This document shows, one piece after another, positions 1 through 64,000 of a stretch of 64,000 bases of DNA; position 1 is the first letter of the stretch; each line of letters starts with the position of its first letter. Origin of the DNA: a virus (taxonomy: Duplodnaviria > Caudoviricetes); IMG/VR virus record IMGVR_UViG_2871841451_000001, positions 2,813-66,812 of that record. One strand, 5' to 3'. Below the pieces are notes generated by a model that made no database searches, had not been told where the DNA came from, and saw only the letters and a list, made by a program, of their open reading frames with translations. The translations under genes and the position numbers were made by a program.

Positions 1-1551
1 GTTATATGATGTGAGCGAAACCGGAGATTGGTTTGGCACGCCGTCGATCTCACGTATCTGAAACGTCTGGCAACTGTCATCGCTGTACCACATCACGGCC
101 GGGCGCGTTGCATTGCTTTGGGTACGAAGAAACCCGACAACTCGCGAACCGTAAACCTGAATAGTTGGCTCAACGAGCATTGGCGTGTTGTTCATTTCAG
201 CGGCAGTGAAAATCACAGCCTTCGTCATTGATGCCAGGTTGTTCGGGTTGAACTGAACGATCCCTACTTCGCCGTCGTAGAAATGGTATCCGAACGCAAT
301 GTTTCCATTCGGTAACACAGCAAAAGAGTGCATGAGAACTGGTGCTTTACCGGTGGAATCATAGAGCGGTACCGGGTCAAGAACCGGCGTATAGACCGAG
401 CCATCATTGGCGCTTTTATAGAGCACGCATTTGCTTTGCGATTCATCAGAGACGCGGCGAAAACGTGCGGCCATCCAGATATTAGCACCGTCAGAACCAG
501 CCCCCCAGGCAGATACTCCCTGCGGCCACGTAACGGGATCAGTGTTTGACAAGCGCGGCGCCGGCCTCGACCACGCTGTGCCATCTTCAGACATTTGCTG
601 ATAGACGCTCAACGAGGCATTGCTGTGGGTATCGCCGACGTTATAGAGGCAGTACGCCTTGTTTTTGTGGCTGAACACCTTCCCCTGGGGCCAGGCACAG
701 TACATCCCCGCATCGGTGATAGGCTCAACGGTAACCGACGAAATCAGATTGAGGATCTCGGCAAGCGTTGTTCCCTTGTGCCCTATCATACCGGCGCCGC
801 CTGGATTGCCGCGTGAAGCAAGATCGGCGGCCAGGTCGGTGCGCGTCGCATCGTCAAGATTGACCAGCTTTACCAACCCCTGTGAGTCAGTAACGAAAAC
901 CTTGTTTGCCGTATCTCCGGTCAGGATTGGCTGCGCGTACGGGAACCTGACGGTTTTACCCAAGGCGACACCGGTTTCAGTACGGATGTCGATATCAGAT
1001 GCAATGCGTTCTGCACGCTCACGCGCCAAGGCATCAGCCGCGCCGGCTTCTGCGTCTGCGATTTCAGAGTCAACATAACGCTTTGTGGCGGCGTCCTGGT
1101 TAGCCACAGGATCGCCAAGGTTAGAAATGCGGTTGCCTTGAGCATCATAGAACTTCGCCAACCAGTTTGGTTTTCGCAGCGCCAATGATGCAAATGACCA
1201 TGTCTGCTGGATCAACATCGTCAGCTTATCCCAGGCATCCTCATGCACTTCTGGGAAGAAGTTCCCCTGGTTGCGTACATCCGTTTCCTGAGTAAGTGGT
1301 AAATCACGCTCGATATTGATTTTCCACCCTGCAGCTAGAGGGCTGGCCAACTTCACTTTGCCACCCGACCGCAGACCTGCGCCGGTCACAGAGTAGTCAG
1401 TATTAAGGGTTAGGTTGATGATATTCTCTGACAAATCAACAACTGATACAGAAAGCTGATCATCAGTGAACACGCGAAATCTGTAATCAAAGTCCGTTGT
1501 CACACCATTCCCGGTGTACTCCTCGCGATCGACTTCAGTTGATACGGTCAT
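1..1551 (-). CDS. Podoviral tailspike, C-terminus off-window; T7 gp17/epsilon15 gp20-like N-terminal anchor plus endosialidase-like beta-propeller
   Basis: Absent from the ORF track because it runs off the left edge. Partial manual translation from ATG 1551 gives MTVSTEVDREEYTGNGVTTDFDYRF...QETDVRNQGNFFPEVHEDAWDKLTMLIQQ, then ITDAGMYCAWPQGKVF and Asp-box-like SEDGTAW and YSDDSCQTF. Confidence 0.85.
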   Translation of the reverse strand, partial: MTVSTEVDREEYTGNGVTTDFDYRFRVFTDDQLSVSVVDLSENIINLTLNTDYSVTGAGLRSGGKVKLASPLAAGWKINIERDLPLTQETDVRNQGNFFPEVHEDAWDKLTMLIQQTWSFASLALRKPNWLAKFYDAQGNRISNLGDPVANQDAATKRYVDSEIADAEAGAADALARERAERIASDIDIRTETGVALGKTVRFPYAQPILTGDTANKVFVTDSQGLVKLVNLDDATRTDLAADLASRGNPGGAGMIGHKGTTLAEILNLISSVTVEPITDAGMYCAWPQGKVFSHKNKAYCLYNVGDTHSNASLSVYQQMSEDGTAWSRPAPRLSNTDPVTWPQGVSAWGAGSDGANIWMAARFRRVSDESQSKCVLYKSANDGSVYTPVLDPVPLYDSTGKAPVLMHSFAVLPNGNIAFGYHFYDGEVGIVQFNPNNLASMTKAVIFTAAEMNNTPMLVEPTIQVYGSRVVGFLRTQSNATRPAVMWYSDDSCQTFQIREIDGVPNQSPVSLTSYN

Positions 1552-1636
1552 GTTTTAGCTCCGATGGTGTGCTTTTTGCTCATTTTAGCCACCAACAAAC
1601 CCTATATGAATTGAATTATGTGATAACATTATTCTT

Positions 1637-1653
1637 ATTACCATTAAGGTAAT
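1637..1653. promoter_or_regulatory. ATTACC-N5-GGTAAT palindromic operator
   Basis: ATTACCATTAAGGTAAT; the same motif recurs at 3209, 20298 and 23478. Confidence 0.7.
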
Positions 1654-1688
1654 TATCTTGCGCATATTGCTAAACTAATCATTTTTAT

Positions 1689-1708
1689 ATATGGTTATTT
1701 ATACAGTA
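1689..1708 (+). promoter_or_regulatory. Degenerate LexA (SOS) box upstream of antirepressor
   Basis: ATG-GTTATTTATA-CAG-TA, i.e. CTG-N10-CAG with C>A in the left half-site. Confidence 0.55.
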
Positions 1709-1737
1709 GTCACACGCTGAGCGAGGTGCATTAGGAA

Positions 1738-1986
1738 ATGAAGAGGTACAGCTACCCGGCCAGCAGGATGCTGGAGAAAAGCGTTAACACGCGCGAAGGG
1801 ATTGCGGGATTAGCTAAGGCTTCACTACTGGAAACGCTGCTGAAGGAACTCGATGATGACGGTTCGGATATCGGCGGTGCTATGCTGGAACTGAATGCTT
1901 TAGTGAACTATGTCACACAAAATGAAAAAATGAAGGAACAAATCAAAACACATTCGCAATTTATTACTCACCAGTTGGAACAATAA
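1738..1986 (+). CDS. ant: SPC32H/epsilon15-type small antirepressor
   Basis: LLKELDDDGSDIGGAMLELNALVNYVT resembles SPC32H Ant as recalled; divergent from the tailspike; SOS-like box upstream. Confidence 0.75.
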   Translation: MKRYSYPASRMLEKSVNTREGIAGLAKASLLETLLKELDDDGSDIGGAMLELNALVNYVTQNEKMKEQIKTHSQFITHQLEQ

Positions 1987-2220
1987 TTACCATCGTCAAT
2001 ACCTCGCCGGGCCTAGCCCGGCTGCTGACCAGGTAATTTTTTTCAATCCCGCTCGCAAAATAGTTACCAAATTGGTACATTTACTTTCTCGCAAACCTGC
2101 GCCACAGTGATAGCGCATCAGCAAAATCTGATGCCGGGATTGGTCTCCTGAAATATAGTCACAGCGCACATGACACGCGCTTAGCGTGTTTTTTTGTTTG
2201 TGCGGTCCAGCTACATCTCA

Positions 2221-2302
2221 ATGGTGGGCTGGGCAGGGGCATCGCAAGATGCGCCGGTTCCCTGTGACGCCGGTAAGACCAACTCTGTCCAGTTCACCAC
2301 CA
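2221..2302 (+). ncRNA. C4-like antisense RNA (P1 c4 / P4 CI family)
   Basis: Closed by ATGGTGGGCTGG...CCAGTTCACCA; inner CTGTGAC and AGACCAA are complementary to GTCACAG and TTGGTCT found both upstream (2138-2164) and downstream (2307-2346, over the next RBS). Confidence 0.8.
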
Positions 2303-2357
2303 GCCAGATTGGTCTCTGCGGTGGTGAGTTTAAAACTCAGTCACAGGAGACGTCACT

Positions 2358-3098
2358 ATGACAGCTCAAACAAAACCAACCGTTTTCTCTTTCGAAGCTT
2401 CTAACCCTATCCGTGCGATCAGCATTGAAGGCTCGCCCTGGTTCGTGACAAAAGATGTTTGCGATGCATTGCGGCTGACAAACTCGCGAATGGCGATGAA
2501 GGCTCTAGACGAAGATGAAAAGGGAGTAAGTTCAACTTACACCCTTGGTGGAAAACAGGATTTGTCCATCATCTCCGAATCCGGCCTCTACACGCTGATC
2601 CTGCGCTGCCGCGACGCGGTGACGCCTGGCACTATCCCCTACCGGTTCCGCAAGTGGGTAACGTCCGAAGTTCTGCCGGCAATCCGCCAGACTGGCCAGT
2701 ACCGGCATCGGGCACCGGAGACGTTATCTGACCTGGCAGGCACAGGAACCACGATGACAGTTCGCGACGCGCGCCGCGGCAAGAAGAAGACCAGCGGCAA
2801 GACCGCAAGCCGGATCGCTGATGCGTGCGTGCCGGTTATCCTGGAAGCCATGCGTGACCAGTACCACTACGCCAACACGAACGTTGGACCAGAAGAAGTG
2901 ATCCCCGCCCTGCTCAGCGACGAGCGCAACCTGCAGATCACCGCGTTGGTTGAAGAGCTGGCAGACAATGGCCACAACGTCGCCGGCGTCGTGCGTGAAG
3001 TCGAGGTGATGCGCTACTACATCCTGCAGTGCGCCAAGAACATGGCGGCGATCGCCACGCACGCAGCATTCATCTCAAAGCAGACGAAGGTGCAGTAA
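2358..3098 (+). CDS. Bro-N domain antirepressor with Ant-like C-terminus
   Basis: Bro-N motifs PWFVTKDVCDAL, ISESGLYTLI and FRKWVTSEVLPAIRQTG. Confidence 0.85.
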   Translation: MTAQTKPTVFSFEASNPIRAISIEGSPWFVTKDVCDALRLTNSRMAMKALDEDEKGVSSTYTLGGKQDLSIISESGLYTLILRCRDAVTPGTIPYRFRKWVTSEVLPAIRQTGQYRHRAPETLSDLAGTGTTMTVRDARRGKKKTSGKTASRIADACVPVILEAMRDQYHYANTNVGPEEVIPALLSDERNLQITALVEELADNGHNVAGVVREVEVMRYYILQCAKNMAAIATHAAFISKQTKVQ

Positions 3099-3181
3099 TC
3101 ATCGACCACGCGATCGGGAAGATGTGAGCAAAGCAGGTGCTTTGTGGTCAACGACAGAGTTCAATATGCAACCAACAACCC

Positions 3182-3225
3182 TTGCAACCAACATTACCAG
3201 TTAGTAATATTACCGAAGTGGTAAT
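3182..3225 (+). promoter_or_regulatory. Sigma70-like promoter overlapped by ATTACC-N5-GGTAAT operator
   Basis: TTGCAA-17-TAATAT, then ATTACCGAAGTGGTAAT at 3209-3225. Confidence 0.6.
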
Positions 3226-3299
3226 CCGCTAGAAAGCCGATACCCAAGCTAGATAAGTAAGATTACCTAGCGTTAGAAGAAGGAGAAGGAGCAAAACCT

Positions 3300-3332
3300 A
3301 TGAAAAAATTTGATGAGTTTGATGGCTTCTAA
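3300..3332 (+). CDS. 10-aa leader peptide MKKFDEFDGF
   Basis: AGGAG RBS upstream; followed by a terminator-like hairpin at 3351-3375. Confidence 0.45.
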   Translation: MKKFDEFDGF

Positions 3333-3376
3333 ATGCCATAGGGTGTTGATAGGCGGGCTAACCACCCGCCTTTTTC

Positions 3377-3916
3377 ATGGAAAAAACAATGAACATCGAT
3401 CCAGTAACAATGCAAATAGTTAGCAATGCAATTGTATTGCTTGGGGTGGTTGTTGCAATTTTCACCATCTGGTACAACATCAGAACTGCAAAAAAAACTC
3501 AGACTGCAATTTTCTTGTTCGAAAGCAGGACAGACAAAGAATACATAGAGTCATTGCATATTCTTAGAAAAGTGCACGAGTCAGGAAAGTCTTTTAGGTC
3601 TTATGTGTTCCCATGCGGTGGCGCAGAATTAACGGAAGAAGAAAAGAACGAAAAGAGAAAATTTCAGTATATTTTGAATTTTTATGAGCGAGTGGCAGTG
3701 AGCATCCAAAATGGAATTTATAACGAGGATATGATCAAAAAGACATCTTACTCGACAGTTATAGATACTTGGAATCATGCAGAGCCGCTAATTAAAGCCA
3801 TCAGAGAAAGCATTAGCTCTAAAACAACCTATCAAGAATTTGAGTGGCTTGCCAATAGATGGAAAGACTCACCGCTAAGAGAGACTTCAAAGCGACGCTG
3901 GTACCACTCATCATAA
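3377..3916 (+). CDS. DUF4760-like membrane-anchored moron protein
   Basis: N-terminal TM; ILNFYERVAVSIQNGIYNEDM and YQEFEWLANRW pattern; low GC. Confidence 0.7.
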   Translation: MEKTMNIDPVTMQIVSNAIVLLGVVVAIFTIWYNIRTAKKTQTAIFLFESRTDKEYIESLHILRKVHESGKSFRSYVFPCGGAELTEEEKNEKRKFQYILNFYERVAVSIQNGIYNEDMIKKTSYSTVIDTWNHAEPLIKAIRESISSKTTYQEFEWLANRWKDSPLRETSKRRWYHSS

Positions 3917-3984: not shown

Positions 3985-4680
3985 TTATTGGAAATAAGCA
4001 TTCATTTCATTGCCATCACCCTTTGCGTAACCACTTGCTTTCTCAGTTAGATTCTCTGTAAAGAATGGCCTGGAAATAAAGAACAGCATTTTTAAGTCTC
4101 TTCTGTCGTTCAAATCCATGGCTGTGCTTACTGCCGTCGTTCTCCACAGTGACTCTTCTTTTCCAGATCGAAGACCAGCTGCATCATATGATTCAACTTT
4201 GAAACCTGTAGAGTAGAAGGTATCGGTAACCTGCTGAGTTACTGCTCCAGTAACACCATATGTAGGCGTATAGGTAGTCGTGGTGCTTAAATTGCCACCC
4301 CCGCCATAACTTGGCGTGACAGTACCATATGTAGTTGCAGAGCTCACTCCGGTCTGCCCCCAAATTGGCACAACCTCTTCACGAGTATTGCTTACCCCGC
4401 CATCATGCCAATAGTTAAGGAATATAGCTTGGTCAGCAATATTTTTATCACTAACTTTCTGATACCCCTTTTCTTTCAGAACTCTATCCAAATATTTTTC
4501 AACCTGAGCAAAATAAAGCTGGTCATTTTGCTTTAGCTCTGCCCTCGCGGGCAGGACTATGTATTTTTTTCCAACTGACTTACCTGAAGATAAAGAGTCT
4601 ACAGTTACATATGGTCCGTTATTACTTGCGCATCCAGAAAGAAAAACAGCCATAACAAGAGTAATTATTATCTTTCTCAT
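3985..4680 (-). CDS. Lipoprotein moron (possible superinfection exclusion)
   Basis: Lipobox FLSG-C; low GC; directly after the ejection-protein genes. Confidence 0.7.
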   Translation of the reverse strand: MRKIIITLVMAVFLSGCASNNGPYVTVDSLSSGKSVGKKYIVLPARAELKQNDQLYFAQVEKYLDRVLKEKGYQKVSDKNIADQAIFLNYWHDGGVSNTREEVVPIWGQTGVSSATTYGTVTPSYGGGGNLSTTTTYTPTYGVTGAVTQQVTDTFYSTGFKVESYDAAGLRSGKEESLWRTTAVSTAMDLNDRRDLKMLFFISRPFFTENLTEKASGYAKGDGNEMNAYFQ

Positions 4681-4691
4681 TATTCACCTAA

Positions 4692-7600
4692 CTATTTAAG
4701 TTGTTCCTCCACTCTGTTCAGAAGTGGAGAGATATAAAACAGGTTCTGATATGGTAGCAACTTCCTGACCGCATGTGTCTGCTTGTCGTCAAATTCTCCG
4801 TTAAGCACACCATTAGCGATAACCGCCCCATCACCGGCCATATCGAAGGTTGGCCCCATCAGGGCGCCGATTGCGTTACGGCTCTGGAAACGTGACACCG
4901 GCGGCGCGCCAAACATGGCGCCAAGGCCGAACCGGCCGCCGCTGATATTCTCCACGGCGTTCAGTGGCTCCGACAACCAGCCGATCATGCCGGCGCGGTC
5001 TATACCCTCTTTCACAAGGTTGTTAGGGCTGTAGTCGATATCACGGCCGCTGAGCTTTTGCTTCATAACGTAGACCATTGCACCGAGCGCGATAGTCCCC
5101 ATGGCTCCGAGATAAAACGATGCATCGCCCTGCTGGATGCCAGACGCGATCACCCGGTTATGCTGCGCGAAAATGAACGTCTTGAACTGCAGGAGCATCT
5201 TACCAACTTCCTTGCTCATCACCAGCGGTGTATCGCCAACGCCGGGCGTGACAACGGTAGAGTCAACATCTTTCAAAACGGCAGACTGGAAAGTCTCTCG
5301 CACTACGCGATCGTCCCACAGATGGCTATGGCCAGTCAGAAGCCCATCCATATCCTCACCATGTTTCGCAAACTGATCACCAATACGGCGCAACATGCTC
5401 TGATCGATGCCAACTTGGGCCATCTTTCTGATTTCCTTCTGCGGAACTTCCTTCCCAGTTACCAACAGCTGTGCATTGCCCAGGATACGGGACTGAACGA
5501 TAAGGCCGGACCATGACTTCAGGGCGCTATTCCACTGGTTCATCAGCGTCCAGTTACCAAACTTCTGCGTACCCCAGTTAATTCCACGCTCGAAAGCAGA
5601 GCGTCGGCTGTAGGGGTCAGTGAGATCAGCAATAGCCTTGGTTCTGGTAGACAACACATAATCCAAGCCGACAGCCATTTCACGCAGGTCTTTGGTTGCC
5701 ACTTTCACCGCGGCCATGTTTCGTAGCATGGCGCCCATAGGGCGCAGTGATTTTCTTAAACCATGCTGCATGACAGGGCGCATCAAATCGGTCGCGGCTG
5801 ATATTGTCATGCCACCCAGCAGGCGCAGGAAGTTGACGTTTCTCGCGACACGGCCGGCACGTACGAAGAAACTGCGTGGATCATTAGGCGCACCATAAGT
5901 GCCAATAAGTCTATCCCTCATTGCATTAATATCGCGTAGGTCAGCCTCTCGTTGCTTCTCGAGCTTGGCGCGCTCCTTCGGCGTCTTGGCATCTTTGATC
6001 AGCTTGGTGTATTCCTCCGATACCTGTCGGATCTGCTCACCCATATCTTTGCTACCGAATTGCGCGGTTAGTTCGATTTCTGGCCCTACCTGGCGTAGAT
6101 AGCTTTCCATGACGTGGTTGATGTCAGACTCCAAAAAGTCCTCAATCCGTTCATCTGGGATAAGCAGGCTTCGGCTCTTCGTGAAGCCAGCGCGGCCGAT
6201 TATTTTTTCAGGCAGCAGCTGAGCGGGAACCAGGCCAGAAGGAGCGCCAATAATCTTGTTGACGATCTCATCTGCGGCATCCTCGGCTTCCTCTCGTGTA
6301 AGTGGCTCCATCGCCTTCAGCGCGCGCTCACGGCTTGCATTCAGTCTGGTCGTGGAGTTGGCCTTCTTCTGCAGCTTGCGCAGCTCTGAGCGGTGCTTGC
6401 GTGGGTTATCAAGCAACTCAAGATGTCGCTGCAGGGTTGGAAGCTCCTCCTTTGCCCTGGCAACGTCATCCAGCTTGGTGCGCAAGTCAGAAACCTCTTT
6501 GTTAAGACGGGTGATCAGCTTCTGATTTTTGGCTGTGGCCAGTTGCGCCTGTTGCTTCTCCAGCCTAGCTGTTAAGTCCTGTTCTTGGCCGATCATTTTC
6601 GTCCTGTTGCCAACCTCATCCATAAGTTCAGTTTTACGGCCAGACCATGACTCTGCCGCGGCAATTTCGTCAGCCAATGCTTTTGCGCGCGGTTCGGCCT
6701 CTGCTGCTGCAGACAGACCTGAATCGATCTTCTCAATGCGCGCGCTGGCCGCATCGGCACCTTTTGTGCTGATACCCTGGAGCCAGTTTGCAATGCGACT
6801 TCGGAACTCAGTGCGATCAGAAATAATCTTGTCGAACTTATAAATGCGAGGCAGATAACTTTGCGCAGTTGAAACATCAATGTCCTCTGGCAATATACCC
6901 AGCTCCTGCATACGGGCCTTAGTCGCTTCAAACATCGGCCTAATCTTCGATGCTGCCAGGGCAACCTCTGGAATATCACTCTGATCGCCACGGCGCATTG
7001 CCATGCCAATAGCTTCGTTAAAATCAACAAAGTTCATTCGCTTACCGCCGGCAGCTCGGATGTTTTTGCTGTATGCCTGATATGCGTCCTTGGTAGACTC
7101 CATCTGCTTATACAGCATGGCATCATATTGCTTAATCTTGGTTTCTGCCGCTGTAAACGTGGCAATCCCTTCGTCGTTTTTGGCAAAGAAATAGTTGTTC
7201 TCTGCAAGTTGCTGACCAATTGCGCGCGACGCGCGGGACGGTGATTGAGCCAGGCGACCGCCAGGATTAACGCTCAGCGTTTTGTTGATTAACCCAACGC
7301 CGGCCAGTTGTTCCTGATCCAGCGTTGTGTTGAAGACCTGCGCCGCGCCAATGCTCTGAGGCGAATCATTGCCACGTAGGTTATTGGCAACGGCTTGGGA
7401 TACGGAAGTTCGCTGCCCGGCGCCAGCAAGCAACTGCGCGCCAGCCCCGAGGATGCCGCCAACCATAGCGTCAACAGCAACGTTAACTGCACTTTCCTCA
7501 AATGTGCGAGTTTCTTGTGTGGCGCTAAGCGCGGCCTCTGATGCGATACCACCGACGGCATTGGCCAAAGCAAATCTGCCAGCGGTAGCCGCAATCTCAC

Positions 7601-8081
7601 CACCGCGCACCACAGCGCCGGCGGGGACAAACATCGATGCCAGGTTGATAGGATCAATTAGCCCCATGGCCAAGCTTGCTATTGTCCCGGCACCGCCTGT
7701 TTCTGAAAGATATTGCCTGTCCTGCATCTGCTGATCTATACGCTGCTTTATAGCGCGCGTCTCGTCAGGAGAGCCGGCATCAATGAATGAGTCTGCGTAA
7801 TCCTCATATCCTTTAAGATCGGCCGCATCATTGTCGAAGGGGTTATAACCATCAACCTTGTCAAACTGGCTGAATGGCGCAGTAGCGATAAAGCTACCCA
7901 GCGAGTTATCTATGCGAAAAGCTGCATCCCGGGAGCTTTTAATTTGCTGGTCGCCGGTGAATGGATTCAACGCAGACAACAATGAGGGCGATTCAAAATA
8001 GGATGAGCTATCATCAGGTTGAGGTATATTTTGAACATCCGCAGATAGCAGATCATCAGGCTTCATCTCATACGTTGGCAT
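4692..8081 (-). CDS. Large internal virion / DNA ejection protein
   Basis: 1129 aa, largely helical; last of three ejection genes in epsilon15-like order. Confidence 0.8.
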   Translation of the reverse strand: MPTYEMKPDDLLSADVQNIPQPDDSSSYFESPSLLSALNPFTGDQQIKSSRDAAFRIDNSLGSFIATAPFSQFDKVDGYNPFDNDAADLKGYEDYADSFIDAGSPDETRAIKQRIDQQMQDRQYLSETGGAGTIASLAMGLIDPINLASMFVPAGAVVRGGEIAATAGRFALANAVGGIASEAALSATQETRTFEESAVNVAVDAMVGGILGAGAQLLAGAGQRTSVSQAVANNLRGNDSPQSIGAAQVFNTTLDQEQLAGVGLINKTLSVNPGGRLAQSPSRASRAIGQQLAENNYFFAKNDEGIATFTAAETKIKQYDAMLYKQMESTKDAYQAYSKNIRAAGGKRMNFVDFNEAIGMAMRRGDQSDIPEVALAASKIRPMFEATKARMQELGILPEDIDVSTAQSYLPRIYKFDKIISDRTEFRSRIANWLQGISTKGADAASARIEKIDSGLSAAAEAEPRAKALADEIAAAESWSGRKTELMDEVGNRTKMIGQEQDLTARLEKQQAQLATAKNQKLITRLNKEVSDLRTKLDDVARAKEELPTLQRHLELLDNPRKHRSELRKLQKKANSTTRLNASRERALKAMEPLTREEAEDAADEIVNKIIGAPSGLVPAQLLPEKIIGRAGFTKSRSLLIPDERIEDFLESDINHVMESYLRQVGPEIELTAQFGSKDMGEQIRQVSEEYTKLIKDAKTPKERAKLEKQREADLRDINAMRDRLIGTYGAPNDPRSFFVRAGRVARNVNFLRLLGGMTISAATDLMRPVMQHGLRKSLRPMGAMLRNMAAVKVATKDLREMAVGLDYVLSTRTKAIADLTDPYSRRSAFERGINWGTQKFGNWTLMNQWNSALKSWSGLIVQSRILGNAQLLVTGKEVPQKEIRKMAQVGIDQSMLRRIGDQFAKHGEDMDGLLTGHSHLWDDRVVRETFQSAVLKDVDSTVVTPGVGDTPLVMSKEVGKMLLQFKTFIFAQHNRVIASGIQQGDASFYLGAMGTIALGAMVYVMKQKLSGRDIDYSPNNLVKEGIDRAGMIGWLSEPLNAVENISGGRFGLGAMFGAPPVSRFQSRNAIGALMGPTFDMAGDGAVIANGVLNGEFDDKQTHAVRKLLPYQNLFYISPLLNRVEEQLK

Positions 8082-10804
8082 TACTGACCTCCTGCGGTAA
8101 TGTTGCTCGGGAATAGTGTTTGCGTAACTGATCCTAATGAATTTGACTGAAATGGTTGTTTATATTCCTGCCGAGCAGCGCGCGCCGCATCAACCCTCTG
8201 TTGCTGGATATCCATAGTTTGCTTGTACATAGGCGAGGTTTTTTGCTCAGGCCTGAATCGCAACGGCATACCATTTTCGCCGTAATACGGGCGAACATCG
8301 TCATAACCTTCTGCGTTCTTCTGGCGCACCATAACGCTGTAACTCTGATCGCGTGGCGTAACAGCATCGGGAACCAAAACCAAATCGGTATCATCTCGCG
8401 CGCCGCCAAACGCGGAACTTTTCAAAGCTTTTTTCTCTTCCTCCCACTGGCCTTTGATCCAGTTGCCTGAACCGTTAGTCACACCATAAACGGCTTCAGG
8501 GGCATACTTCATCACCTCTTCTTTGCCGTTGATGGTAGATACCGCCCAAACCTTTTTAATCATGGCGTTAGTCATTGCCTTGGCCTGATCAGCATCGCCG
8601 CCGGTCTGTGCAAAGTTCGCATCGTAAATGGTCTGGTAGTCGCGTTGGTACAACTGATTAGCCTGCCCTGCGGCGCTGATGCTTGGTGCCCCGAAGCTGG
8701 TCCACGACGGCGAAAGACTATTGATATTATCCTGCGCTGCGGTGGCTCTAGCCTTGATGTAGTCTTTATCCCTGACCTGTTGGCTAATCATCTGCTTCAA
8801 GCGATCGTCCTGCTGATAGACCTGGTTGTAGGCCATATCGACCGCTTTCTCTGCAGGCACGCCGGCGCGGTCATAGGCATAAACTTTCGAGTAAAACGCC
8901 ATCGCGCCTTTATCAACTCCTGTGGCCGCCGCCGGATTGTTGTCAAAAATCTGCCCGTACATCTTGGCCATAGGAACAACGACAGCAGGATCGCGCGATG
9001 TTGCCCCAGCGGTGAGCATCGTCTTGATCTGCGTCGGCAGCATGCCGGATTTAGTCGTTATCTCTGCAACCTGGTTCAAGCTGTCTGCGTTGTTGATATT
9101 GAAACCGGGGGCAACCTTTTGATCAAAGTAATGATCAGCTGCTTCCTGATTGTTTTTGTCGTTCGGGTCCAGGGGAAAATTATTTTGCAACGATGAAGAG
9201 AACCGCGCACTCCCCTGGTTCTTCTCCCATTCGGCATCGAGCTGCTTAAATTTCGCCTGCATTTTGTCCCAGCGCTGCTGGTTGGCTGCAAAATTAGATG
9301 CATTCGGATCCGTTGGCCGCAAGCGTTCAAGCAGGTCCTGCCGCGCTGCCGGCGACATGCTTTTGGCTGCTCCAATAACGCCACCATAACTTTGCTGATC
9401 TTGAAGGTCTTGCCATTGCCGCATGCCTTTTGATGGGCCATAGGCATTTATCAGATCTGCTTGCGTGGGCAGCTGTGCCGGCTGTAGTCCTTCATCAAGA
9501 GCTGAATACGCATCTTTCAGCGATGTGCCAAGCTGCTGTGCGTATAATGCTCGCTGCTCATTCTGCATGGCCTGCGCCTGTCGCAAATAGGCGCCTTGAG
9601 TTGCAGGGCTTGCAGCATCAAAAGCTGCATTGCCGGTTCTACGCTTTGAGGATTCCAACGCAGAAAGGCCGAGAGCCGCGCTGACGCCGGCGCCGATCTG
9701 CTCATCGGTGTATGGCTGGCTGCCATTCTCATGCTTCACGATGCCGGCACACAACGCTGCCAGGGTTCGCGGGTTGCTCATATCCACCTGATCGTTGGCG
9801 CCGACACCCAATGCGCCGCACAGGGCCTTGATGTAGGCATCAGTGTTGTTTCCATCAGATGCAGGCGCCCAACGGTTAACGATCTCTGCTACGGTATCGA
9901 ACCCTTTAGCCTGATACGCGAGAAGGTTCTTACCCAGCGCTCTGATCCCATGCTCCGGGGTCTCAAACCTGGCAAAGCGACCATCGCTGCCTGTCTGCCC
10001 TTCCCATGGGTTTTTATCACTGGCCTCAATGTTGCCAGGATTGTTATTTCGCAGACCGCGCGCAGCAGATGAATTTCCATGCGCAGTGAATCGAGACACG
10101 CCACCAACGTCTGACGGCTCGCCATTTCTAGCCAGGAACTGATCATAGCGGCCAGCCGTAAGCTGGGCATTCAAGGCAGCCTTGGCCGAGTTTTCCCGGA
10201 AGCTTACCCAGTTGGCTTCAATCTCTTCCGGACTTTGTCCATGCGCCTGGCCGTATGCCATGATCTGCTCTCTGGCCAGCAGGTTTGCATTTACAAATCC
10301 TTCGTTGCTATCGAAGCTGTTTTCAGCCTGCTGCTGCAGGTTCGCCAATAGCCCTTGCTGCTGACCTGCTTCGAACTGCTGACGCTGGCCGATCTCGTAC
10401 TGGCGCGCACGATTGGCAATAGGCTGGCCGGCGGCGGAAAATTGATTACGGAAACGCTCTTTCACCGGACCATCAGGAATGGAGTCAAAAGCCGTGCTGG
10501 CCATTTGGCTTAACTGGCTTGCTACCTGTTCGCTCTGCCCAATGGCGTTGGCGCCCTGCTTGGTCAGCAACCCGGTTCGAGGGTTATTCATCAGGTCATC
10601 AGCTTGCTGGTTGAACTGCATCAGGGCGTTTTGAGCGAACGCCAGATCTTCGCGTTCACGCTGCTGCTGATAAATGCCCAACGCATTAGAACCAACGTCT
10701 GCCAGCGCAGTGAAAGCGTTGTCTTTGGGGATACGCAAATCCTGCGTATTAACCGGCGCCGCTTGTGATTGCGATTGGCGCTGATATAACGGTACTGTAG
10801 GCAT
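8081..10804 (-). CDS. Internal virion / ejection protein with lysozyme-like domain
   Basis: RGLRNNNPGNIE...RFETPEHGIRAL...IVNRWAP motif within a Q/A-rich coiled protein. Confidence 0.8.
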   Translation of the reverse strand: MPTVPLYQRQSQSQAAPVNTQDLRIPKDNAFTALADVGSNALGIYQQQREREDLAFAQNALMQFNQQADDLMNNPRTGLLTKQGANAIGQSEQVASQLSQMASTAFDSIPDGPVKERFRNQFSAAGQPIANRARQYEIGQRQQFEAGQQQGLLANLQQQAENSFDSNEGFVNANLLAREQIMAYGQAHGQSPEEIEANWVSFRENSAKAALNAQLTAGRYDQFLARNGEPSDVGGVSRFTAHGNSSAARGLRNNNPGNIEASDKNPWEGQTGSDGRFARFETPEHGIRALGKNLLAYQAKGFDTVAEIVNRWAPASDGNNTDAYIKALCGALGVGANDQVDMSNPRTLAALCAGIVKHENGSQPYTDEQIGAGVSAALGLSALESSKRRTGNAAFDAASPATQGAYLRQAQAMQNEQRALYAQQLGTSLKDAYSALDEGLQPAQLPTQADLINAYGPSKGMRQWQDLQDQQSYGGVIGAAKSMSPAARQDLLERLRPTDPNASNFAANQQRWDKMQAKFKQLDAEWEKNQGSARFSSSLQNNFPLDPNDKNNQEAADHYFDQKVAPGFNINNADSLNQVAEITTKSGMLPTQIKTMLTAGATSRDPAVVVPMAKMYGQIFDNNPAAATGVDKGAMAFYSKVYAYDRAGVPAEKAVDMAYNQVYQQDDRLKQMISQQVRDKDYIKARATAAQDNINSLSPSWTSFGAPSISAAGQANQLYQRDYQTIYDANFAQTGGDADQAKAMTNAMIKKVWAVSTINGKEEVMKYAPEAVYGVTNGSGNWIKGQWEEEKKALKSSAFGGARDDTDLVLVPDAVTPRDQSYSVMVRQKNAEGYDDVRPYYGENGMPLRFRPEQKTSPMYKQTMDIQQQRVDAARAARQEYKQPFQSNSLGSVTQTLFPSNITAGGQ

Positions 10805-10813
10805 CGCTCCCCC

Positions 10814-11389
10814 TTAAAACGTGAATGCGTTAGAGCCGTAGCGACTGCTGCGGGCATTGCTAAACATGTTGCTGCTGGAACCACTACCGGTTTTGGTAGC
10901 TGGCTTATCCAGCGCGCCAGAAGATTTATAAGCACCATATGCGGTAAGCGAGGAATTCAGGATTGTCGTTGCCGCGCCAAGGTTGGCAGCGTTGCGATCG
11001 ATCTGCCCCTGGGCGCGACTAACACCAGCCTGGAAGTTAAGGCCAGCCGCCTGGCGCTCTGCGTTATTGACGGTGGTAAGAGCATCAAGCTGGCCGCCGG
11101 CCGCTGTATCGCCGAAGATATTCAGCGCACTTCCGCTGGTCATGTCAGTGCCGCCGGCGCCGAAGGCTGCAGCCTGCTGACCCTGTAGCTGGCGTGTCTG
11201 CTGGCGCTGCTGATAAGCCGCATCATTGCCCGCATTAATCGTGTCGCGCGCGGCGATCTCTTGTGCATCTGCATTGGCGTTGGCTATCCTCGCCTGTTGC
11301 TGCCCTGTTTGGTATTGGCCATAAGCGCTAACTGCACCGAGAGCCAGCGCAGAGCCTGCAAGGATTGTTGTTGGCTCACACATGATCAC
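10814..11389 (-). CDS. Small internal virion protein (T7 gp14-like)
   Basis: MCEPTT start, hydrophobic N-terminus, A/Q/G-rich. Confidence 0.75.
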   Translation of the reverse strand: MIMCEPTTILAGSALALGAVSAYGQYQTGQQQARIANANADAQEIAARDTINAGNDAAYQQRQQTRQLQGQQAAAFGAGGTDMTSGSALNIFGDTAAGGQLDALTTVNNAERQAAGLNFQAGVSRAQGQIDRNAANLGAATTILNSSLTAYGAYKSSGALDKPATKTGSGSSSNMFSNARSSRYGSNAFTF

Positions 11390-11849
11390 CTCGTCTCATT
11401 TCAAATCTGTGGAATGGAAGCCCGGCACGGCCAACGGGCTGCGCTTCATGGATGGTGAAACCCAGCCAGTGCAGCCAGCATTTAGCCGCGGTGTTGCGCG
11501 CGTCGACGTAGTTTTCCAGTTCCGGATAATGCTGCAGGAAAAGACGCAGAACTGGCCGGCACCGGCGTAGGAAAGTGGCCTGATATCTTTCAAGCAGGTC
11601 AGAACCCACCAGCCACGGAACCCCAGATCCGGTTATCATTGACCGCGGCGCCACGCCGAAGATGGTCACCACCTCGCCATTGATCAGCCCAGCGAAAGCA
11701 AATGCAGAAGTGCGCAGCGCAAGTTCAAGAACCTGAGCCGGCGTCTTGCCACTCATCGCCTCGAACTCATCAGCGTCAGCCTGGCGAACGCGCGGCAGGA
11801 GTGCCGCAACGTGTTCAAGAGTGGCTTCGACAACTTCAACCTTGCGCAC
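11376..11849 (-). CDS. T7 gp13-like GNAT-fold virion assembly protein
   Basis: LENYVDARNTAAKCWLHWLGF motif; position after the nozzle gene. Confidence 0.75.
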   Translation of the reverse strand: MRKVEVVEATLEHVAALLPRVRQADADEFEAMSGKTPAQVLELALRTSAFAFAGLINGEVVTIFGVAPRSMITGSGVPWLVGSDLLERYQATFLRRCRPVLRLFLQHYPELENYVDARNTAAKCWLHWLGFTIHEAQPVGRAGLPFHRFEMRRGDHV

Positions 11850-14350: not shown

Positions 14351-14961
14351 TATGATGCCCTCGCGTCGGAAACCTCAGACCACGGCGCCGGCGGCTCCTG
14401 GGTTTCATTCATGCTAAGCGTTGACGCAGATGAAATGGTGAGTTGGTATTTCTGCTCGGCGCGATTACCGAGACTGGCATCCCCTGTGATCTGCATGTTG
14501 ATTTCTGCTGCCAGGCGCCAGCTAAGTGCATCGCGGAACTCTGCGTCAAACATGTTGGGGTCGGTGACGCGTGTCACGTAGCGCAGCCATGCTTTCGGCA
14601 GGTCAGTCAATATCAAACGGCCAGTGCCATTCTCATCAGAACCGACCTCATACGGCACGCGCCGTTCTGGCGTAATAAAGCGCTCACCGCCTGGAGAGAC
14701 GATCGCAACAATGCGCTGGCAGTCCACCGGGTAACGATAACTGTATTGCCAATCAGGCTGTTCGATATCCAGATCGGCGAGCGCCACGCGCTTTGTGGCG
14801 AACCTCCACGGAAAATCAGCCAGCACCGCATCGCGGCAGTCTTCATAAAACAGCGAGCATACCGCCGCTTCTTTGCTCTTTTCCGTCAGGCTGGCAATAA
14901 CTCGGCTGTTGCCAAGCCGACCAAGCGCCACGTTGCAGATCTGGATAACGGATGCCATCAC
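14350..14961 (-). CDS. Head-tail adaptor (tail tubular protein A)
   Basis: ICNVALGRLG...WRFATKR pattern. Confidence 0.88.
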   Translation of the reverse strand: MMASVIQICNVALGRLGNSRVIASLTEKSKEAAVCSLFYEDCRDAVLADFPWRFATKRVALADLDIEQPDWQYSYRYPVDCQRIVAIVSPGGERFITPERRVPYEVGSDENGTGRLILTDLPKAWLRYVTRVTDPNMFDAEFRDALSWRLAAEINMQITGDASLGNRAEQKYQLTISSASTLSMNETQEPPAPWSEVSDARAS

Positions 14962-15281
14962 TCGCCCCCTGCGTCGCCATAAAGTGTGTCAGCAGCAGAA
15001 CGCTGCGGCGCGGCCGCCGGCTCTACGCCAATATCAGTGAATTGCAGATCAACGCTGCTTTCGGCTTTATCACCTTCGGTGCGGGTGGAGACAGACAGCA
15101 CTTTAGCCAGGCCGCCAATTGTCAGTGATTCGCCAACCTTTGGCAGTGGGATCCCCAGCTTTTCCAATGTGTCATTGTTCAGCGTGAAGCGAAGCCCCCA
15201 CGGATATTCGTCGCGAGTCTCCGGCTTTCCGCCTTCGCTTTCGTAGGTGTCTGTGCCGATCTTGAGGTTTACGGTTTTCAT
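14958..15281 (-). CDS. Capsid staple protein (epsilon15 gp10-like)
   Basis: YPWGLRFTLNNDTLEKLG...VDLQFTDIG. Confidence 0.75.
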   Translation of the reverse strand: MKTVNLKIGTDTYESEGGKPETRDEYPWGLRFTLNNDTLEKLGIPLPKVGESLTIGGLAKVLSVSTRTEGDKAESSVDLQFTDIGVEPAAAPQRSAADTLYGDAGGE

Positions 15282-15320
15282 GCGAGGACTCCAGGAAAGA
15301 AAGGGGCCGAAGCCCCTTTG

Positions 15321-15614
15321 TTAGTTGATGCCTAACTCTTTGCGCTTGGCTTCAATTTCTTCTGACAATTTGGCGATACCCGCTTTGTGATGCGGCTTGG
15401 TGCCAAAGATTTCTTCATACTGCTGCTGCAGCGCGGCCAGCTTCGCGCTGTCGTCGTTGTCGCCGCCGCCCTCTTCCAGCAGATTGCCATCACCATCGAT
15501 CAGCTGCAGGTTGTCGCCAGCCTTGCCGCCGTATTCGATTGTGTCGCCCTCTTCCAGCAGATGCCCGTTGATGAATGACTTCCGTGTGACGCGGTACATT
15601 TTCAGTTGTGACAT
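15321..15614 (-). CDS. Small virion-associated hypothetical protein
   Basis: In operon between the cement and staple genes. Confidence 0.65.
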   Translation of the reverse strand: MSQLKMYRVTRKSFINGHLLEEGDTIEYGGKAGDNLQLIDGDGNLLEEGGGDNDDSAKLAALQQQYEEIFGTKPHHKAGIAKLSEEIEAKRKELGIN

Positions 15615-15615
15615 G

Positions 15616-16062: not shown

Positions 16063-16115
16063 TTTGTCTCTCCATCAGTAAGAAAGGAGAGCCGCACCCG
16101 GCGGCTCAGCCGGGA

Positions 16116-17102: not shown

Positions 17103-17107
17103 ATCAA

Positions 17108-17788: not shown

Positions 17789-17798
17789 GTGATGCCTC

Positions 17799-20009: not shown

Positions 20010-20011
20010 GA

Positions 20012-20215
20012 TCAGCCACCCAACAGAGTTTTGCCGGTGGTGCTGGCTTGGCCTGTAGCGCCCTGCGCGCCAGTAAGGATTGTTGACTGCTGACCAGCAG
20101 CCGCACGGCGTCGAGCCTTATCCTTATCGGCGGCATCAATCACTGCAGCATCCTGCGCTTGCGGCGCTGCCTGTGGCTGCGGTGGCGTTGAAACCTTCGG
20201 CGTACTCATGCACAT
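20012..20215 (-). CDS. Small conserved protein preceding portal
   Basis: MCMSTPK...STILTG...KTLLGG. Confidence 0.7.
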   Translation of the reverse strand: MCMSTPKVSTPPQPQAAPQAQDAAVIDAADKDKARRRAAAGQQSTILTGAQGATGQASTTGKTLLGG

Positions 20216-60219: not shown

Positions 60220-62526
60220 ATGACCACACCAACCAGCAAACCCATTCCTAGTAATGACGTAATTGATTTAAAGTTTAACGCGGAAAAAATAGACGAGGTG
60301 GTTAATTCCAATGCTGAGGAATACCTGGATAGGTTTGGGGTGGAAAGATACACCTTAGAAGGCATTAGGAAAAATCTCTCTCCATTAGGAAAAACATACA
60401 CTCAAGAGCAGGCTGCCGCTGCTATTGCATCTGGAGAAATACCGGATGGCGCGTTCTTCTTTATCTGGTCTGATGATGAGGGCGCTGTAGCTGAAAAATA
60501 TCAAAACGTTGGCGGTGTAATTGCACCAACGGGTGTGAAAATATCAAGTGAGCAATTCGTGCAAATGGTTTACCAACAGGCGTTGGCAAACCTGGCCGAT
60601 ATTTCGCAACTTAAAAACATCACATCGATGCTTAAAAACTACACCTCTAAAGGGTGGCAGTTTTCGTTGGAGTCGAAAAACGGTCCATCTGAAACACTTC
60701 TTGGTGTAGATGATAATGGCGAGTTGTGGCTCGCAGGCCTTGTTCGTGGGATACAGGAATATGTTGAGCAGTTAATTCCGACATCATTAGCGAACAGATA
60801 TAAAGGGCTTCAATGGGCGCTGGTGGATAAATCAGGAAAGCTCGGGCTTATCACAATTGACGATGATGGTGCTATGAACATTGTCGGGATGGACGATGCA
60901 CTTCAGGATCGTGTTTCCTCGCTTTGTTCATCAACATTTTCACGTCGTATTGTTGGATTTCAATATGTGGTTTTGGCAGAGGATTTAAAGTCGGCACTGC
61001 TCGCTATTGATGATGATGGCGGTTTCTATATTCCAGGTATTGAAGGCCCGCTTCAAGATAATCTGGGTGAGTCCCTTGCAACGATAAAAACCGAGAACGG
61101 AGTGCCGGCGGCGGCATGGCGAGGAAATGTTGTGTGGTCTGAGAGGCCAGTACTCACCGCCCAAAAACTGACATCGACCGGATTTATTTTCAGTTATGTG
61201 CCTGGAGGTGAAGCAACTGCAGGGAGTGGGGTTAAGTACGAGCCATCAATTCGAGAAATGCCTATCGATGCAAACGAGGTGCATGGCGGTGGTTCGGGTG
61301 GCCAGTCACTGAACACGCCAAAAGATGGCGCCGGCATTAATATTGTCAATCGCGATCCTGCTTTTCGTGGTCGAGTACTCGCGGGTGCAAATGGAAGGCC
61401 GGAAGGCGGCGGCATGGATCCTGTAAGCGAGTCAGACCTGTCTACGCTTAACGATGCACAGTATCCGGCGGCAGGATGGCGCCAGGGTAACGTGTTGCCG
61501 ATGTATTATGCGATTCTCCATCAGAATCCTGGCAACCAGGTCTTTATTCATGCCCCATTTGCGGCAGGCGGCCGCTCTTTTGCTGAGATAAGCAAAGGGA
61601 CAATCCCTTATCAAAACTCGCTGGACTTCGTGCAGCTTGGGAAAAATGCAGCCGACGGAGTAGGGAAGCGCTACACGTTCAAATTCATGACGTTTGAGCA
61701 TGGAGAAACGGATAACGACAACGGCAGCTCCCAGAATCCTGGTGACTATCTCGCGAAAATGACGCCTTATTTCTCGGGCATGCAAGTTGACTTCAAAGCG
61801 ATTACCGGCCAGACCGAGAATTTCGCAGAGGTCGTGGGGCAGGTCGGCAGTCGCATCAATACCAAAAATCAGCAGGTAGACGATCAAGGCAACCCAATCG
61901 GCGAGCCTGTGGTTGTACAGCCGTACTCTGTCACCGCCACAGACCAGTTAACTTATGTGCGTCAGAACGCGGCCAAGTCCATCATGTACGGCCCCAAATA
62001 CCCGCTTAACTGGCTCTATAACGATGCAACGCTGAGCCATCTGAATGCCGCCGGCAAAGTGCTGCAAGGCGAATATGCCGCACAGGCTATCTACTGGCAT
62101 CTGTATGACCCAGTGAAAAAAGGCACCTGGACGGGGCTCAAAGCTCGCTCATTATCAGTGAATGGTAGCACTATCGACATCGTGTTCGATGTCCCATACC
62201 CACCGCTGGTAGTTGATACAACAACAATTGCTGATTGCCCTGGGCAAGGCTTCTCGTTGCAAGATGCCTCTGCTGAAGTTCAGTCTGTAGTAGTTATCGC
62301 ACCAAACACTATCCGGCTTAATCTCAATCAGTCCCCAGCAGTTACAGATCACTTATTGATTGGATTCACTAACACTGTTCCAGCAACCCAGGACTTTGTC
62401 TATCCACTGGTTTGCCTGCGTGATAGCTCAACTCAAACATCACGCTGGGTCACTAAGAACAACCAACCCTTTCCGCTATATAACTGGGCATGTCTCGATC
62501 GCCTACCACTGAATGGAGCATTTTAA
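60220..62526 (+). CDS. Tail spike with SGNH-esterase-like C-terminal domain
   Basis: DLKFNAEKIDEVVNS anchor; three ~50-aa repeats; GQSL, HGETD and SHL blocks. Confidence 0.75.
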   Translation: MTTPTSKPIPSNDVIDLKFNAEKIDEVVNSNAEEYLDRFGVERYTLEGIRKNLSPLGKTYTQEQAAAAIASGEIPDGAFFFIWSDDEGAVAEKYQNVGGVIAPTGVKISSEQFVQMVYQQALANLADISQLKNITSMLKNYTSKGWQFSLESKNGPSETLLGVDDNGELWLAGLVRGIQEYVEQLIPTSLANRYKGLQWALVDKSGKLGLITIDDDGAMNIVGMDDALQDRVSSLCSSTFSRRIVGFQYVVLAEDLKSALLAIDDDGGFYIPGIEGPLQDNLGESLATIKTENGVPAAAWRGNVVWSERPVLTAQKLTSTGFIFSYVPGGEATAGSGVKYEPSIREMPIDANEVHGGGSGGQSLNTPKDGAGINIVNRDPAFRGRVLAGANGRPEGGGMDPVSESDLSTLNDAQYPAAGWRQGNVLPMYYAILHQNPGNQVFIHAPFAAGGRSFAEISKGTIPYQNSLDFVQLGKNAADGVGKRYTFKFMTFEHGETDNDNGSSQNPGDYLAKMTPYFSGMQVDFKAITGQTENFAEVVGQVGSRINTKNQQVDDQGNPIGEPVVVQPYSVTATDQLTYVRQNAAKSIMYGPKYPLNWLYNDATLSHLNAAGKVLQGEYAAQAIYWHLYDPVKKGTWTGLKARSLSVNGSTIDIVFDVPYPPLVVDTTTIADCPGQGFSLQDASAEVQSVVVIAPNTIRLNLNQSPAVTDHLLIGFTNTVPATQDFVYPLVCLRDSSTQTSRWVTKNNQPFPLYNWACLDRLPLNGAF

Positions 62527-63432
62527 ATGACAGCAGCTATCAATACTGGCAAAGCCTATGCGGGTTTTCGTGCGGCTCTCGACTTGTCGGCATCAATCCT
62601 TGACCCACAGGCGCTCTTTAATGCCTACAAAGTGCGGGTAGTGGCAGACGGAGGCTCTATCCCGGACGAGTCTGGTTGCTTGGCGCGGTTTTCATTTTTA
62701 CTGAACAATGGAATGTATGACCGAGCGACGGTATGTGCTGCGCCGGCATTCGGACTAAAGGCGGATGGTTCAGGAAACGTCCAGACCATTTACAACCTGC
62801 TTGGTGTTGACGGTGATTTGATTGCAGGTTCCCAGGGCACTCCACCGTTGCCGATGACGTATGATGCTACCGCGCGCGCGGTTATCATTCAAATTACATC
62901 CGGCGGCGGCTGGTTCTTAAAGAGTCGCGCAAACCAGGTTATTCAAAAGGGCGGTGCGTATCTTATCGCTGGCCGCATGAGCGATCTGTACCGTGCGGAC
63001 AACAACGGTATTCAGCTTGGGTACAATATCAATAATCTGCCGCTGGCATATCTGCGGACAATGATCACGAACAACAATGCCATAACTGAATCCTGGCGAT
63101 ATGGTACGCGTGATAGTGCCTGGCCAGCTGGTACTGGCGGCGCGGTAGGTGCTGCGACATCTATCTATGCTGACTATGTGCCATCGGCAGGACTTTTCAA
63201 AGTCGCGTCTGGTGTCATTGAAGGTTATGAGAAAGGAAAGCTGTCGGTAACTTCCTCTGTGGCCGCTACAGGTAAGCTTGCCGATTTGAGCAGTTTCACT
63301 GCCCCGCTGTTGGTCGGCGGGACGCAGGGCTCCGGCAGTGTTGGCGCATGCTATGGCGCTTTCAAAGATGTGTTATTCCTGCACACTGCCGATGAGTCTG
63401 ACGCGGTATTGGCTTCTCGTCTCGGGATGTGA
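62527..63432 (+). CDS. Tail-spike-associated protein
   Basis: Abuts the spike gene; YKVRVVADGG N-terminal motif. Confidence 0.6.
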   Translation: MTAAINTGKAYAGFRAALDLSASILDPQALFNAYKVRVVADGGSIPDESGCLARFSFLLNNGMYDRATVCAAPAFGLKADGSGNVQTIYNLLGVDGDLIAGSQGTPPLPMTYDATARAVIIQITSGGGWFLKSRANQVIQKGGAYLIAGRMSDLYRADNNGIQLGYNINNLPLAYLRTMITNNNAITESWRYGTRDSAWPAGTGGAVGAATSIYADYVPSAGLFKVASGVIEGYEKGKLSVTSSVAATGKLADLSSFTAPLLVGGTQGSGSVGACYGAFKDVLFLHTADESDAVLASRLGM

Positions 63433-63544
63433 TGCGCTGCCGGGAGGGAACCCGGCCATTCATGTAAACTATCTTTCTTTACCGATCAATATCCTACCGT
63501 TCTAACAAAAATCCGAACTTTCCCCCGTCAAAATCTTGCGCATA

Positions 63545-63564
63545 TACTGTATAAAAACACAGTA
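63545..63564 (+). promoter_or_regulatory. LexA (SOS) box
   Basis: TACTGTATAAAAACACAGTA, near consensus. Confidence 0.9.
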
Positions 63565-63577
63565 ACAAGGCAACATT

Positions 63578-64000
63578 ATGACTTTCTTTTATCCAACACC
63601 AAACCCAACCAAGCTCAAAATCCCGCTGTTCGCTGACAAGGTGCCGGCGGGGTTTCCCAGTCCAGCGGCAGATTACGTCAGCTCGCGCATCGATCTGAAC
63701 GAGTATTGTATAAGCCATCCCAATGCAACCTATTTTCTGTATGCGACAGGTGATTCCATGCTTGAGGCTGGGATCACTGAGGGCTCTATGCTTGTGGTTG
63801 ACCGCAGCATCAGTCCGGCCCATGGCGATATAGTGATTGCCAGCATAGCCGGCGAGTTCACCGTGAAACGCCTCTGTTTGCATCCTCGCGCGCAACTGGA
63901 ACCCATGAACCCGAAGTATGAGCCGATCCTGCTCCATGATGGCGGTGACGATCTGGAGGTGATGGGCGTTGTTGTGTCTTCGATCACGAGGCTCAAATAA
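63578..64000 (+). CDS. umuD: UmuD (Pol V subunit, S24 peptidase)
   Basis: AGFPSPAADY, GDSM and EFTVKRL motifs. Confidence 0.93.
   Translation: MTFFYPTPNPTKLKIPLFADKVPAGFPSPAADYVSSRIDLNEYCISHPNATYFLYATGDSMLEAGITEGSMLVVDRSISPAHGDIVIASIAGEFTVKRLCLHPRAQLEPMNPKYEPILLHDGGDDLEVMGVVVSSITRLK

Follow-up and report, generated by a model that had tools for sequence, protein, structure and literature searches.

The closest described relatives of the element considered here, an apparent prophage with two complete virion modules on either side of a single repressor switch, are the podoviruses epsilon15 and phiV10, the Serratia phage vB_SspM_BZS1 (MT843275; BZS1 below), and two phages with a similar siphoviral late module, ES18 and the Klebsiella phage vB_Kpn_RAH1. 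The element fills the “window,” by which we mean the whole stretch of 64,000 nucleotides (nt) that was analysed, bases 2813–66812 of one 66,812-base virus record (IMGVR_UViG_2871841451_000001), with 2,812 further bases of that record lying to the left. With epsilon15, phiV10, and four podovirus relatives (L007, L025, L032, and L037) the record shares one gene order, from the regulator, terS, terL, connector, protease, and capsid through tail, internal virion proteins, and tailspike to lysis. The complete podovirus relatives (38–41 kb), however, carry their own integrase, repressor, cro, O, and P upstream of a group of small genes, where the record has the cI side of a lambdoid phage instead; and within its small-gene region the record holds a BZS1-like stretch and a segment of 1,854 bases, here called R, both of which are lacking in these relatives. 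With BZS1 the record is collinear from the leftward operon through cI, cro, KilA-N, O, HNH, and RusA to holin/endolysin; by its annotation, BZS1 differs in having lambda-like head genes, a Mu-like contractile tail, and xis/int/attP after the leftward operon, whereas the late genes of the record are ES18-like. ES18 and vB_Kpn_RAH1 share the late module alone with the record, whose early region is BZS1-like; the module is ≈76% identical in nt to these and other phages (for ES18 and vB_Kpn_RAH1, over the head and head–tail genes), and the PHROGs of terL, portal, head morphogenesis, major tail, and tape measure match.

Junctions between prophages are themselves known. According to passages of PMC11602124 on S. 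pyogenes and of PMC13492144, which cites Iguchi 2006 on E. coli O157:H7, a crossover in a similar segment of two prophages gives an inversion with two reciprocal chimeric remnants. A real join in the present record would be of the same kind, with the difference that the partners here are of unrelated virion types; even then, it would amount to a known kind of rearrangement.

A preliminary description had presented the window as a two-virion prophage. The two-module layout with one repressor switch is a genuine property of the record: an epsilon15-like podoviral late module on the minus strand (1–23.6 kb) and an ES18-like siphoviral late module on the plus strand (40–63.4 kb) face away from a BZS1-like cI/cro/O/Q region (28–38 kb), as had been claimed and as PHROG and Pfam matches and nt identity bear out. 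As a genetic element, the two-virion prophage is nonetheless probably an artefact, a wrong path taken through R, which is a two-copy repeat common to two ordinary prophages, an epsilon15-like podovirus (“P”) and a lambdoid siphovirus (“S”).

The evidence comes chiefly from an independent assembly. Run X1, probably the source isolate, contains the whole of 23000–27000; it alone, of the 20 runs listed, has half or more of the sampled words. The Logan contigs of X1, in which its reads were assembled independently by k-mers, break the join: R (25937–27790) forms a separate contig there (Logan record 3; 1,854 bases, depth 100.2) with two flanks on either side. To the left, Logan record 1 (35,007 bases, depth 51.3) covers 15000–25966 on the podovirus side with 0 differences and ends there, and Logan record 2 (30,492 bases, depth 47.2) enters R from the left, with its end at 25914–25966. 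To the right, Logan record 4 (69,056 bases, depth 45.7) begins at 27761 on the cI side, and Logan record 5 (34,893 bases, depth 51.2) enters R from the right, with its end at 27761–27811. Since R stands at double depth (100.2 vs. 45.7–51.3) between four single-copy flanks, it must be present twice in X1, in identical or nearly identical copies. About twice the depth at the joint and more than one flank on each side are what a collapsed repeat leaves behind, and both were found. The preliminary description had itself named misassembly as an alternative, to be recognized by doubled coverage over 24–28 kb; this sign is there, with 100.2 over 25937–27790 against 51.3 and 45.7. R is thus a two-copy segment with four flanks, one of the two extra flanks is of the podovirus early-arm type (see below), and both late modules are complete.

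The depths of the flanks fall into two pairs, 51.3/51.2 (Logan records 1 and 5) and 47.2/45.7 (Logan records 2 and 4), while the join in the virus record needs a step from 51.3 to 45.7 (12%) at R. By coordinate arithmetic that assumes collinearity, Logan records 1 and 4 extend ≈6 kb and ≈33 kb past the two ends of the virus record, suggesting that the latter was excised from a longer host sequence. Three other runs (X2, X5, and X6) hold relatives only and are silent on the join in X1; parts of the window uncovered there were not taken as evidence.

The extra flank on the right leads toward the early genes of a podovirus. The 30 letters with which Logan record 5 continues beyond 27811 occur exactly once in IMG/VR, in L080, a provirus fragment of 9,965 bases that comes from another isolate; they lie 93 bases short of its end, and these final 93 bases match 27811–27719 of the window at 97.8%. 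L080 encodes an integrase, methylase, RecT, exonuclease VIII, repressor, O-like and P-like proteins, and a Holliday-junction resolvase, and is collinear with the early arms of L007, L025, and L032. From this match it follows that the second copy of R adjoins a podovirus-type early arm. On the left, Logan record 2 consists of R to 25914, ≈200 other bases, a 27-base piece of 25279–25305, and then a 30-mer of its own. The same structure occurs in L081, and its first 204 bases in L046, a 41.6-kb lambdoid provirus from another isolate with O on one strand and the leftward genes on the other. In one contig, the leftward genes of L046 comprise a 268-amino-acid (aa) open reading frame (ORF) at the repressor position, assigned by position alone, then ParB, a 164-aa ORF and the methylase (each 100% identical in aa), and finally the 204 bases of flank of the Logan record 2 type. 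L046 thus provides an independent sight of the ordinary S-type join.

The relatives, moreover, offer no second instance of the join. Related loci were collected by the DUF551 gene (44 from IMG/VR) and by the 164-aa ORF at the right border of R (32 from IMG/VR), to which L001 (BZS1 itself) and one locus from a GTDB genome were added (n = 78). A podoviral late module joined to a lambdoid cI side was found in 0 of these 78 (77 from IMG/VR and one genome; BLAST against the window). The 35-mer immediately left of R has 0 matches in viral contigs and 0 in metagenome contigs, and the 36-mer to its right has two, both in lambdoid contigs without podoviral genes. The search for the same junction in other genomes, proposed in the preliminary description, has therefore come back empty. 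The podovirus relative L025 is arranged normally, with RecT, RecE, ParB, and the repressor, then cro, O, P, resolvase, methylase, small genes, an Ead-type gene, the regulator, and terS. The closest podovirus relative, in run X5, has 43 differing letters over ≈8.6 kb of the late module (15000–23586) and is a normal prophage in one 63.5-kb contig, which leaves the window at 24629 and at 27811, the latter being the same place as in Logan record 5.

On the reading that we favour, the source isolate would carry two separate and complete prophages. P, of ≈40 kb, would be an epsilon15-like podovirus running from int, RecT/exonuclease, and repressor to cro, O, P, resolvase, the small genes including R, the late regulator, and terS, and on to tailspike and lysis; S, of ≈43 kb, would be a lambdoid siphovirus with a BZS1-like leftward operon including R, followed by cI/cro, O, Q, lysis, and ES18-like head and tail genes. 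R would be identical in both, lying downstream of replication and transcribed toward terS in P, and lying in the leftward operon and transcribed away from cI in S. The virus record would then leave R by the wrong exit, so that the late arm of P is joined to the immunity-to-tail arm of S and both integrase-side arms are omitted, and “one switch, two virions” would be a product of repeat resolution rather than a genetic element. The arm sizes agree with this: P comes to 28.4 + 1.85 + 9.9 = ≈40 kb, against 38.1–41.2 kb in its relatives and 39.7 kb in epsilon15, and S to 37.5 kb or more, to which an integrase-side arm (≈5.7 kb in BZS1) must be added. Which flank joins which is inferred from the depth pairing, these arm sizes, the normal relative in X5, and the lack of a second chimeric instance.

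Several points weigh against this reading. Some assembler did join the two halves, and if mate pairs or long reads were used, its join would merit trust. The Logan contigs carry no pairing information, and a link through R is seen neither way. The depth argument consists of five contig means from one run, which may be the record's own data. A whole early arm in Logan record 5 is extrapolated from 81 matching bases and from L080, which comes from another isolate; and an integrase would still have to be present in Logan record 2, whose 30-mer also occurs in G001, a third kind of phage, in the region that separates replication from packaging genes. Lastly, the perfect identity of R in two otherwise diverged co-resident prophages points to recent exchange, which makes a crossover between the prophages plausible.

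Such a crossover is the strongest of the alternatives, although we regard it as unlikely. Recombination between inverted copies of R would have inverted the chromosome segment between P and S, so that the present locus would be the late arm of P, R, and the cI-to-tail arm of S, and the reciprocal locus the int-to-resolvase arm of P, R, and the integrase-side arm of S; neither would excise as a unit. On an SOS signal, leftward transcription from S could then extend into the regulator and late genes of the podovirus, with the siphoviral genes driven by transcription in the rightward direction, and both particle sets might come from DNA replicating in place. The path is present in the record itself, where no break interrupts the minus-strand ORFs between cI and terS; R, exact and 1.85 kb long, offers ample substrate for RecA-dependent recombination; and the orientation of R on each phage map fits if both prophages face the same way in the chromosome. 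Two highly similar copies of a segment in two prophages of one genome, the starting material of such an inversion, were found, inversions between prophages with highly similar regions are documented in S. pyogenes and have a precedent in E. coli O157:H7 (in the passages cited above), and the four flanks seen are predicted by either arrangement. Against it stand the depths, since an inversion needs steps of 51.3 to 45.7 and 51.2 to 47.2, while the ordinary arrangement gives 51.3/51.2 and 47.2/45.7; adjacent arms of equal depth were not found (51.3 vs. 45.7), which is a weak sign, these being contig means only. A second instance, too, was found neither among the 78 related loci nor by the exact flank probes, and a read-level link spanning R was not seen. 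Inversions of this kind, finally, affect a minority of strains, whereas short-read assemblies cannot resolve an exact repeat of 1.85 kb.

It is quite improbable, in our estimate, that an inversion through the 1.85-kb methylase module has put the podoviral late operon and its own regulator under the leftward promoter controlled by the lambdoid CI/Cro, with the siphoviral operon driven rightward. If it had, one SOS-cleavable repressor would stand over both virion types, unrelated as they are, at a locus that exceeds 63 kb, lacks an integrase, and cannot excise, and the immunity and replication genes of the podovirus would remain at the reciprocal locus. Replication in place from the O origin could feed two packaging machines working outward into both chromosomal flanks. 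Two unrelated sets of particles under one repressor would make this a natural case of such control, and two-sided lateral transduction might arise from it.

A mixture, in which flipping of the segment through R keeps both arrangements side by side in the culture and the assembler reported one state, is very unlikely. An exact inverted repeat of 1.85 kb would permit repeated flipping, and contig graphs cannot separate a mixture from a single state, but the clean pairing of depths suggests one dominant state, and high-frequency flipping of a large inversion would be unusual. The preliminary description had proposed that deletion or inversion across shared genes fused two prophages; of the two, inversion has the depth pairing and the lack of a second instance against it, as set out above, and deletion does not survive. 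A deletion between adjacent prophages would account for the single immunity region and the lack of an integrase in the record, but it would leave no second copy of the shared segment, and it is excluded by the double depth of R and the two further single-copy flanks, one of them with a podovirus-type early arm, since the parts supposedly lost are still in the genome. The two particle types suggested earlier have nothing in their favour beyond the join itself, and a gene transfer agent-like element is rejected, given that ordinary temperate-phage control, replication, and lysis genes stand beside both modules.

No integrase was found in the record: none of its 18 ORFs of at least 300 aa is one, and tblastn of the record with the BZS1 int, the BZS1 xis, and the L080 int gave no match, so that the int/xis expected of a lambdoid phage at the far end of the leftward operon was not found by either approach. 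The BZS1 attP with its surrounding sequence has chance matches of 11–15 bases only in the record. The window has no tRNA gene, and the record no internal repeat at E ≤ 1e-5. The same-strand leftward operon down to the podoviral terS, described at the outset, is confirmed, with minus-strand ORFs following one another without a break from 30637. A single lysis cassette, on the other hand, had been reported, and this was an effect of the window's edge, because the record extends 2,812 bases farther left and carries a second cassette there; the record thus has one cassette per late module.

The two phage types meet in a small-gene region at 24.2–28.0 kb, which is known in two settings, between replication and terS in podoviruses and in the leftward operon of lambdoid phages. 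The earlier placing of the joint among shared Ead/DUF551/methylase-type genes at ≈24–28 kb was correct, as this region is collinear with the pre-terS region of L007, L025, and L032 and with the leftward operons of BZS1, L028, and L046. From the podoviral side, the contigs of L007, L025, L032, and L037 (27–41 kb) match the window at 81–90% nt identity from the structural genes to ≈24,630, and short linker motifs remain collinear up to 27,979 (tblastx, which was noisy here, so that collinear motifs alone were used). From the other side, collinearity with BZS1 and with many lambdoid proviruses extends from ≈37,900 of the window down to ≈24,170–24,890. The first gene of the region, an Ead/DUF551-type gene (23955–24725, minus strand), is itself a mosaic, with different pieces common to the podovirus relatives and to lambdoid prophages (tblastn, IMG/VR loci). 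It is followed by small ORFs at 24887–25936 (minus strand), which are 86–90% identical in nt to genes of the BZS1 leftward operon and yet are contiguous with the podovirus module in Logan record 1. R itself (minus strand) comprises a DNA methyltransferase gene (26154–26699, assigned by methylase PHROGs), ORFs at 26663–27313 and 27310–27606, and the C-terminal part of an ORF at 27608–28102.

Short motifs at gene borders (≈25004–25055, 25914–25961, 27293–27343, 27767–27811, and 27908–27979) are conserved among small-gene regions that are otherwise different, both podoviral and lambdoid, and the borders of R and of many alignments coincide with them. They look like linkers for module exchange. 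A further gene common to both phage types and nearly identical in them is a 177-aa ORF (29729–30262; phrog_19692): 29696–30280 of the window is 98.8% identical in nt to 2336–2919 of L007, in the early left arm of that podovirus relative, where the copy has the opposite orientation, as expected for a normal phage. The module also turns up in less expected places. In L078, a contig labelled Pseudomonas lundensis, 521 bases (10169–10683) are 90% identical to 27811–27294 of the window, an odd host label for a module of enterobacterial type. G001 (L092/L093), an IMG/VR provirus of 70 kb with a completeness rating of 100%, has an R-like methylase (94% aa identity) between an O-like gene on its upstream side and a distant podo-like portal on its downstream side, a third setting for the same module. 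G001 was considered as a similar double element and rejected, being a different phage with the arrangement just given; it does not show what Logan record 2 is.

The podoviral late module is complete for a temperate epsilon15-like podovirus and includes its own lysis genes, but an integrase, repressor/cro, and replication genes of its own, contiguous with the late module, were not found within the 66.8-kb record. At its upstream end, a regulator (23582–24196, minus strand; phrog_536, with homologues for the C-terminal ≈90 aa only) lies directly upstream of terS; it is native to the podovirus module, as a homologue lies just upstream of terS/terL in Klebsiella phage Kp4865-1 and the stretch is conserved in L007, L025, L032, and L037. 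Both terminase genes, terS (22922–23563; Terminase_2, phrog_51) and terL (21453–22925; phrog_2), are on the minus strand and ≈75% identical in nt to those of epsilon15/phiV10. The structural block (3985–20009, minus strand; PHROGs) is 81–90% identical in nt to L007, L025, L032, and L037 and contains, in order of transcription, a portal-sized connector of 561 aa (18324–20009), the protease (17108–17788), the major head protein (16116–17102), two tail proteins (14350–14961 and 11849–14350), and three internal virion proteins (10814–11389, 8081–10804, and 4692–8081). Between connector and terL (20010–21450), the GC content is ≈0.50 and two ORFs (20662–21057, plus strand; 21155–21511, minus strand) have no Pfam match; the relative from a sister strain in run X2 skips 20679–21808, an insertion or deletion difference at this place.

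Farther downstream, three genes on the opposite strand (1738–3916, plus strand) interrupt the module between the internal virion protein genes and the tailspike: Bro-N (2358–3098), DUF4760 (3377–3916), and an 82-aa ORF. The GC content falls to 0.45–0.49 here, and the genes look like accessory genes acquired by the phage. The window then takes in the N-terminal 517 of the 866 aa of a tailspike/fibre (1–1551, minus strand; Pfam Phage_T7_tail and End_beta_propel), the full-length protein matching tail protein/tailspike PHROGs. Its gene continues leftward out of the window into the record, and after it comes the podoviral lysis cassette, with holin, endolysin, Rz-like spanin, and an 86-aa ORF (L079, 383–1731), left of the window.

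The central region is collinear with BZS1 at 75–90% nt identity and is organized as in a lambdoid phage, with a divergent cI/cro pair and with cII, O, Q, lysis, and late genes arranged as they are in lambda. For the stretch from cI to the Q-like gene, the nt identity to BZS1 is 75–85%. The proximal leftward operon (27791–30637, minus strand) consists of the N-terminal part of the ORF at 27608–28102, a ParB-like gene (28099–28881), and small ORFs, and is collinear with BZS1 and with many lambdoid loci in IMG/VR. The cI gene (31012–31752, minus strand) encodes a helix-turn-helix and Peptidase_S24 protein with 92.7% aa identity to the CI of BZS1; cro-like (31773–32099) and cII-like (32117–32410) genes follow on the plus strand. 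The rightward early and lysis genes (32699–38317, plus strand) are KilA-N/antirepressor-like, O, HNH (of the DUF968 type, going by the BZS1 annotation), RusA, Q-like, holin, endolysin, and Rz-like.

The siphoviral late module (39665–63432, plus strand) runs through a metallopeptidase, DUF2280, terL, portal, head morphogenesis, a capsid-like protein, major tail, tape measure, a J-like protein, and a fibre to a homologue of BZS1 p28; the DUF2280 gene is, by its position, the probable terS. The last two late genes are common to BZS1 (60820–63460 is 77% identical to BZS1 21607–24242), and p28, the homologue of which closes the module, is a virion-associated protein in BZS1. The record closes on the right with an ORF that is open-ended and at least 168 aa long (63494–64000, minus strand) and that has no Pfam or PHROG match.

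For the use of such records, the lesson is that virus records cut from draft genomes can be chimeric if prophages of the same host have an identical module in common; a provirus of more than 60 kb with two late modules and no integrase should serve as a warning sign. For the phages themselves, the finding is that one cell contains an epsilon15-like podovirus and a lambdoid siphovirus with the same methylase module of 1,854 bases, identical in both and bounded by short conserved linker motifs. This shared module documents recent exchange between phages of unrelated virion types and is a ready substrate for rearrangement; as such, it belongs to the ordinary biology of these phages.

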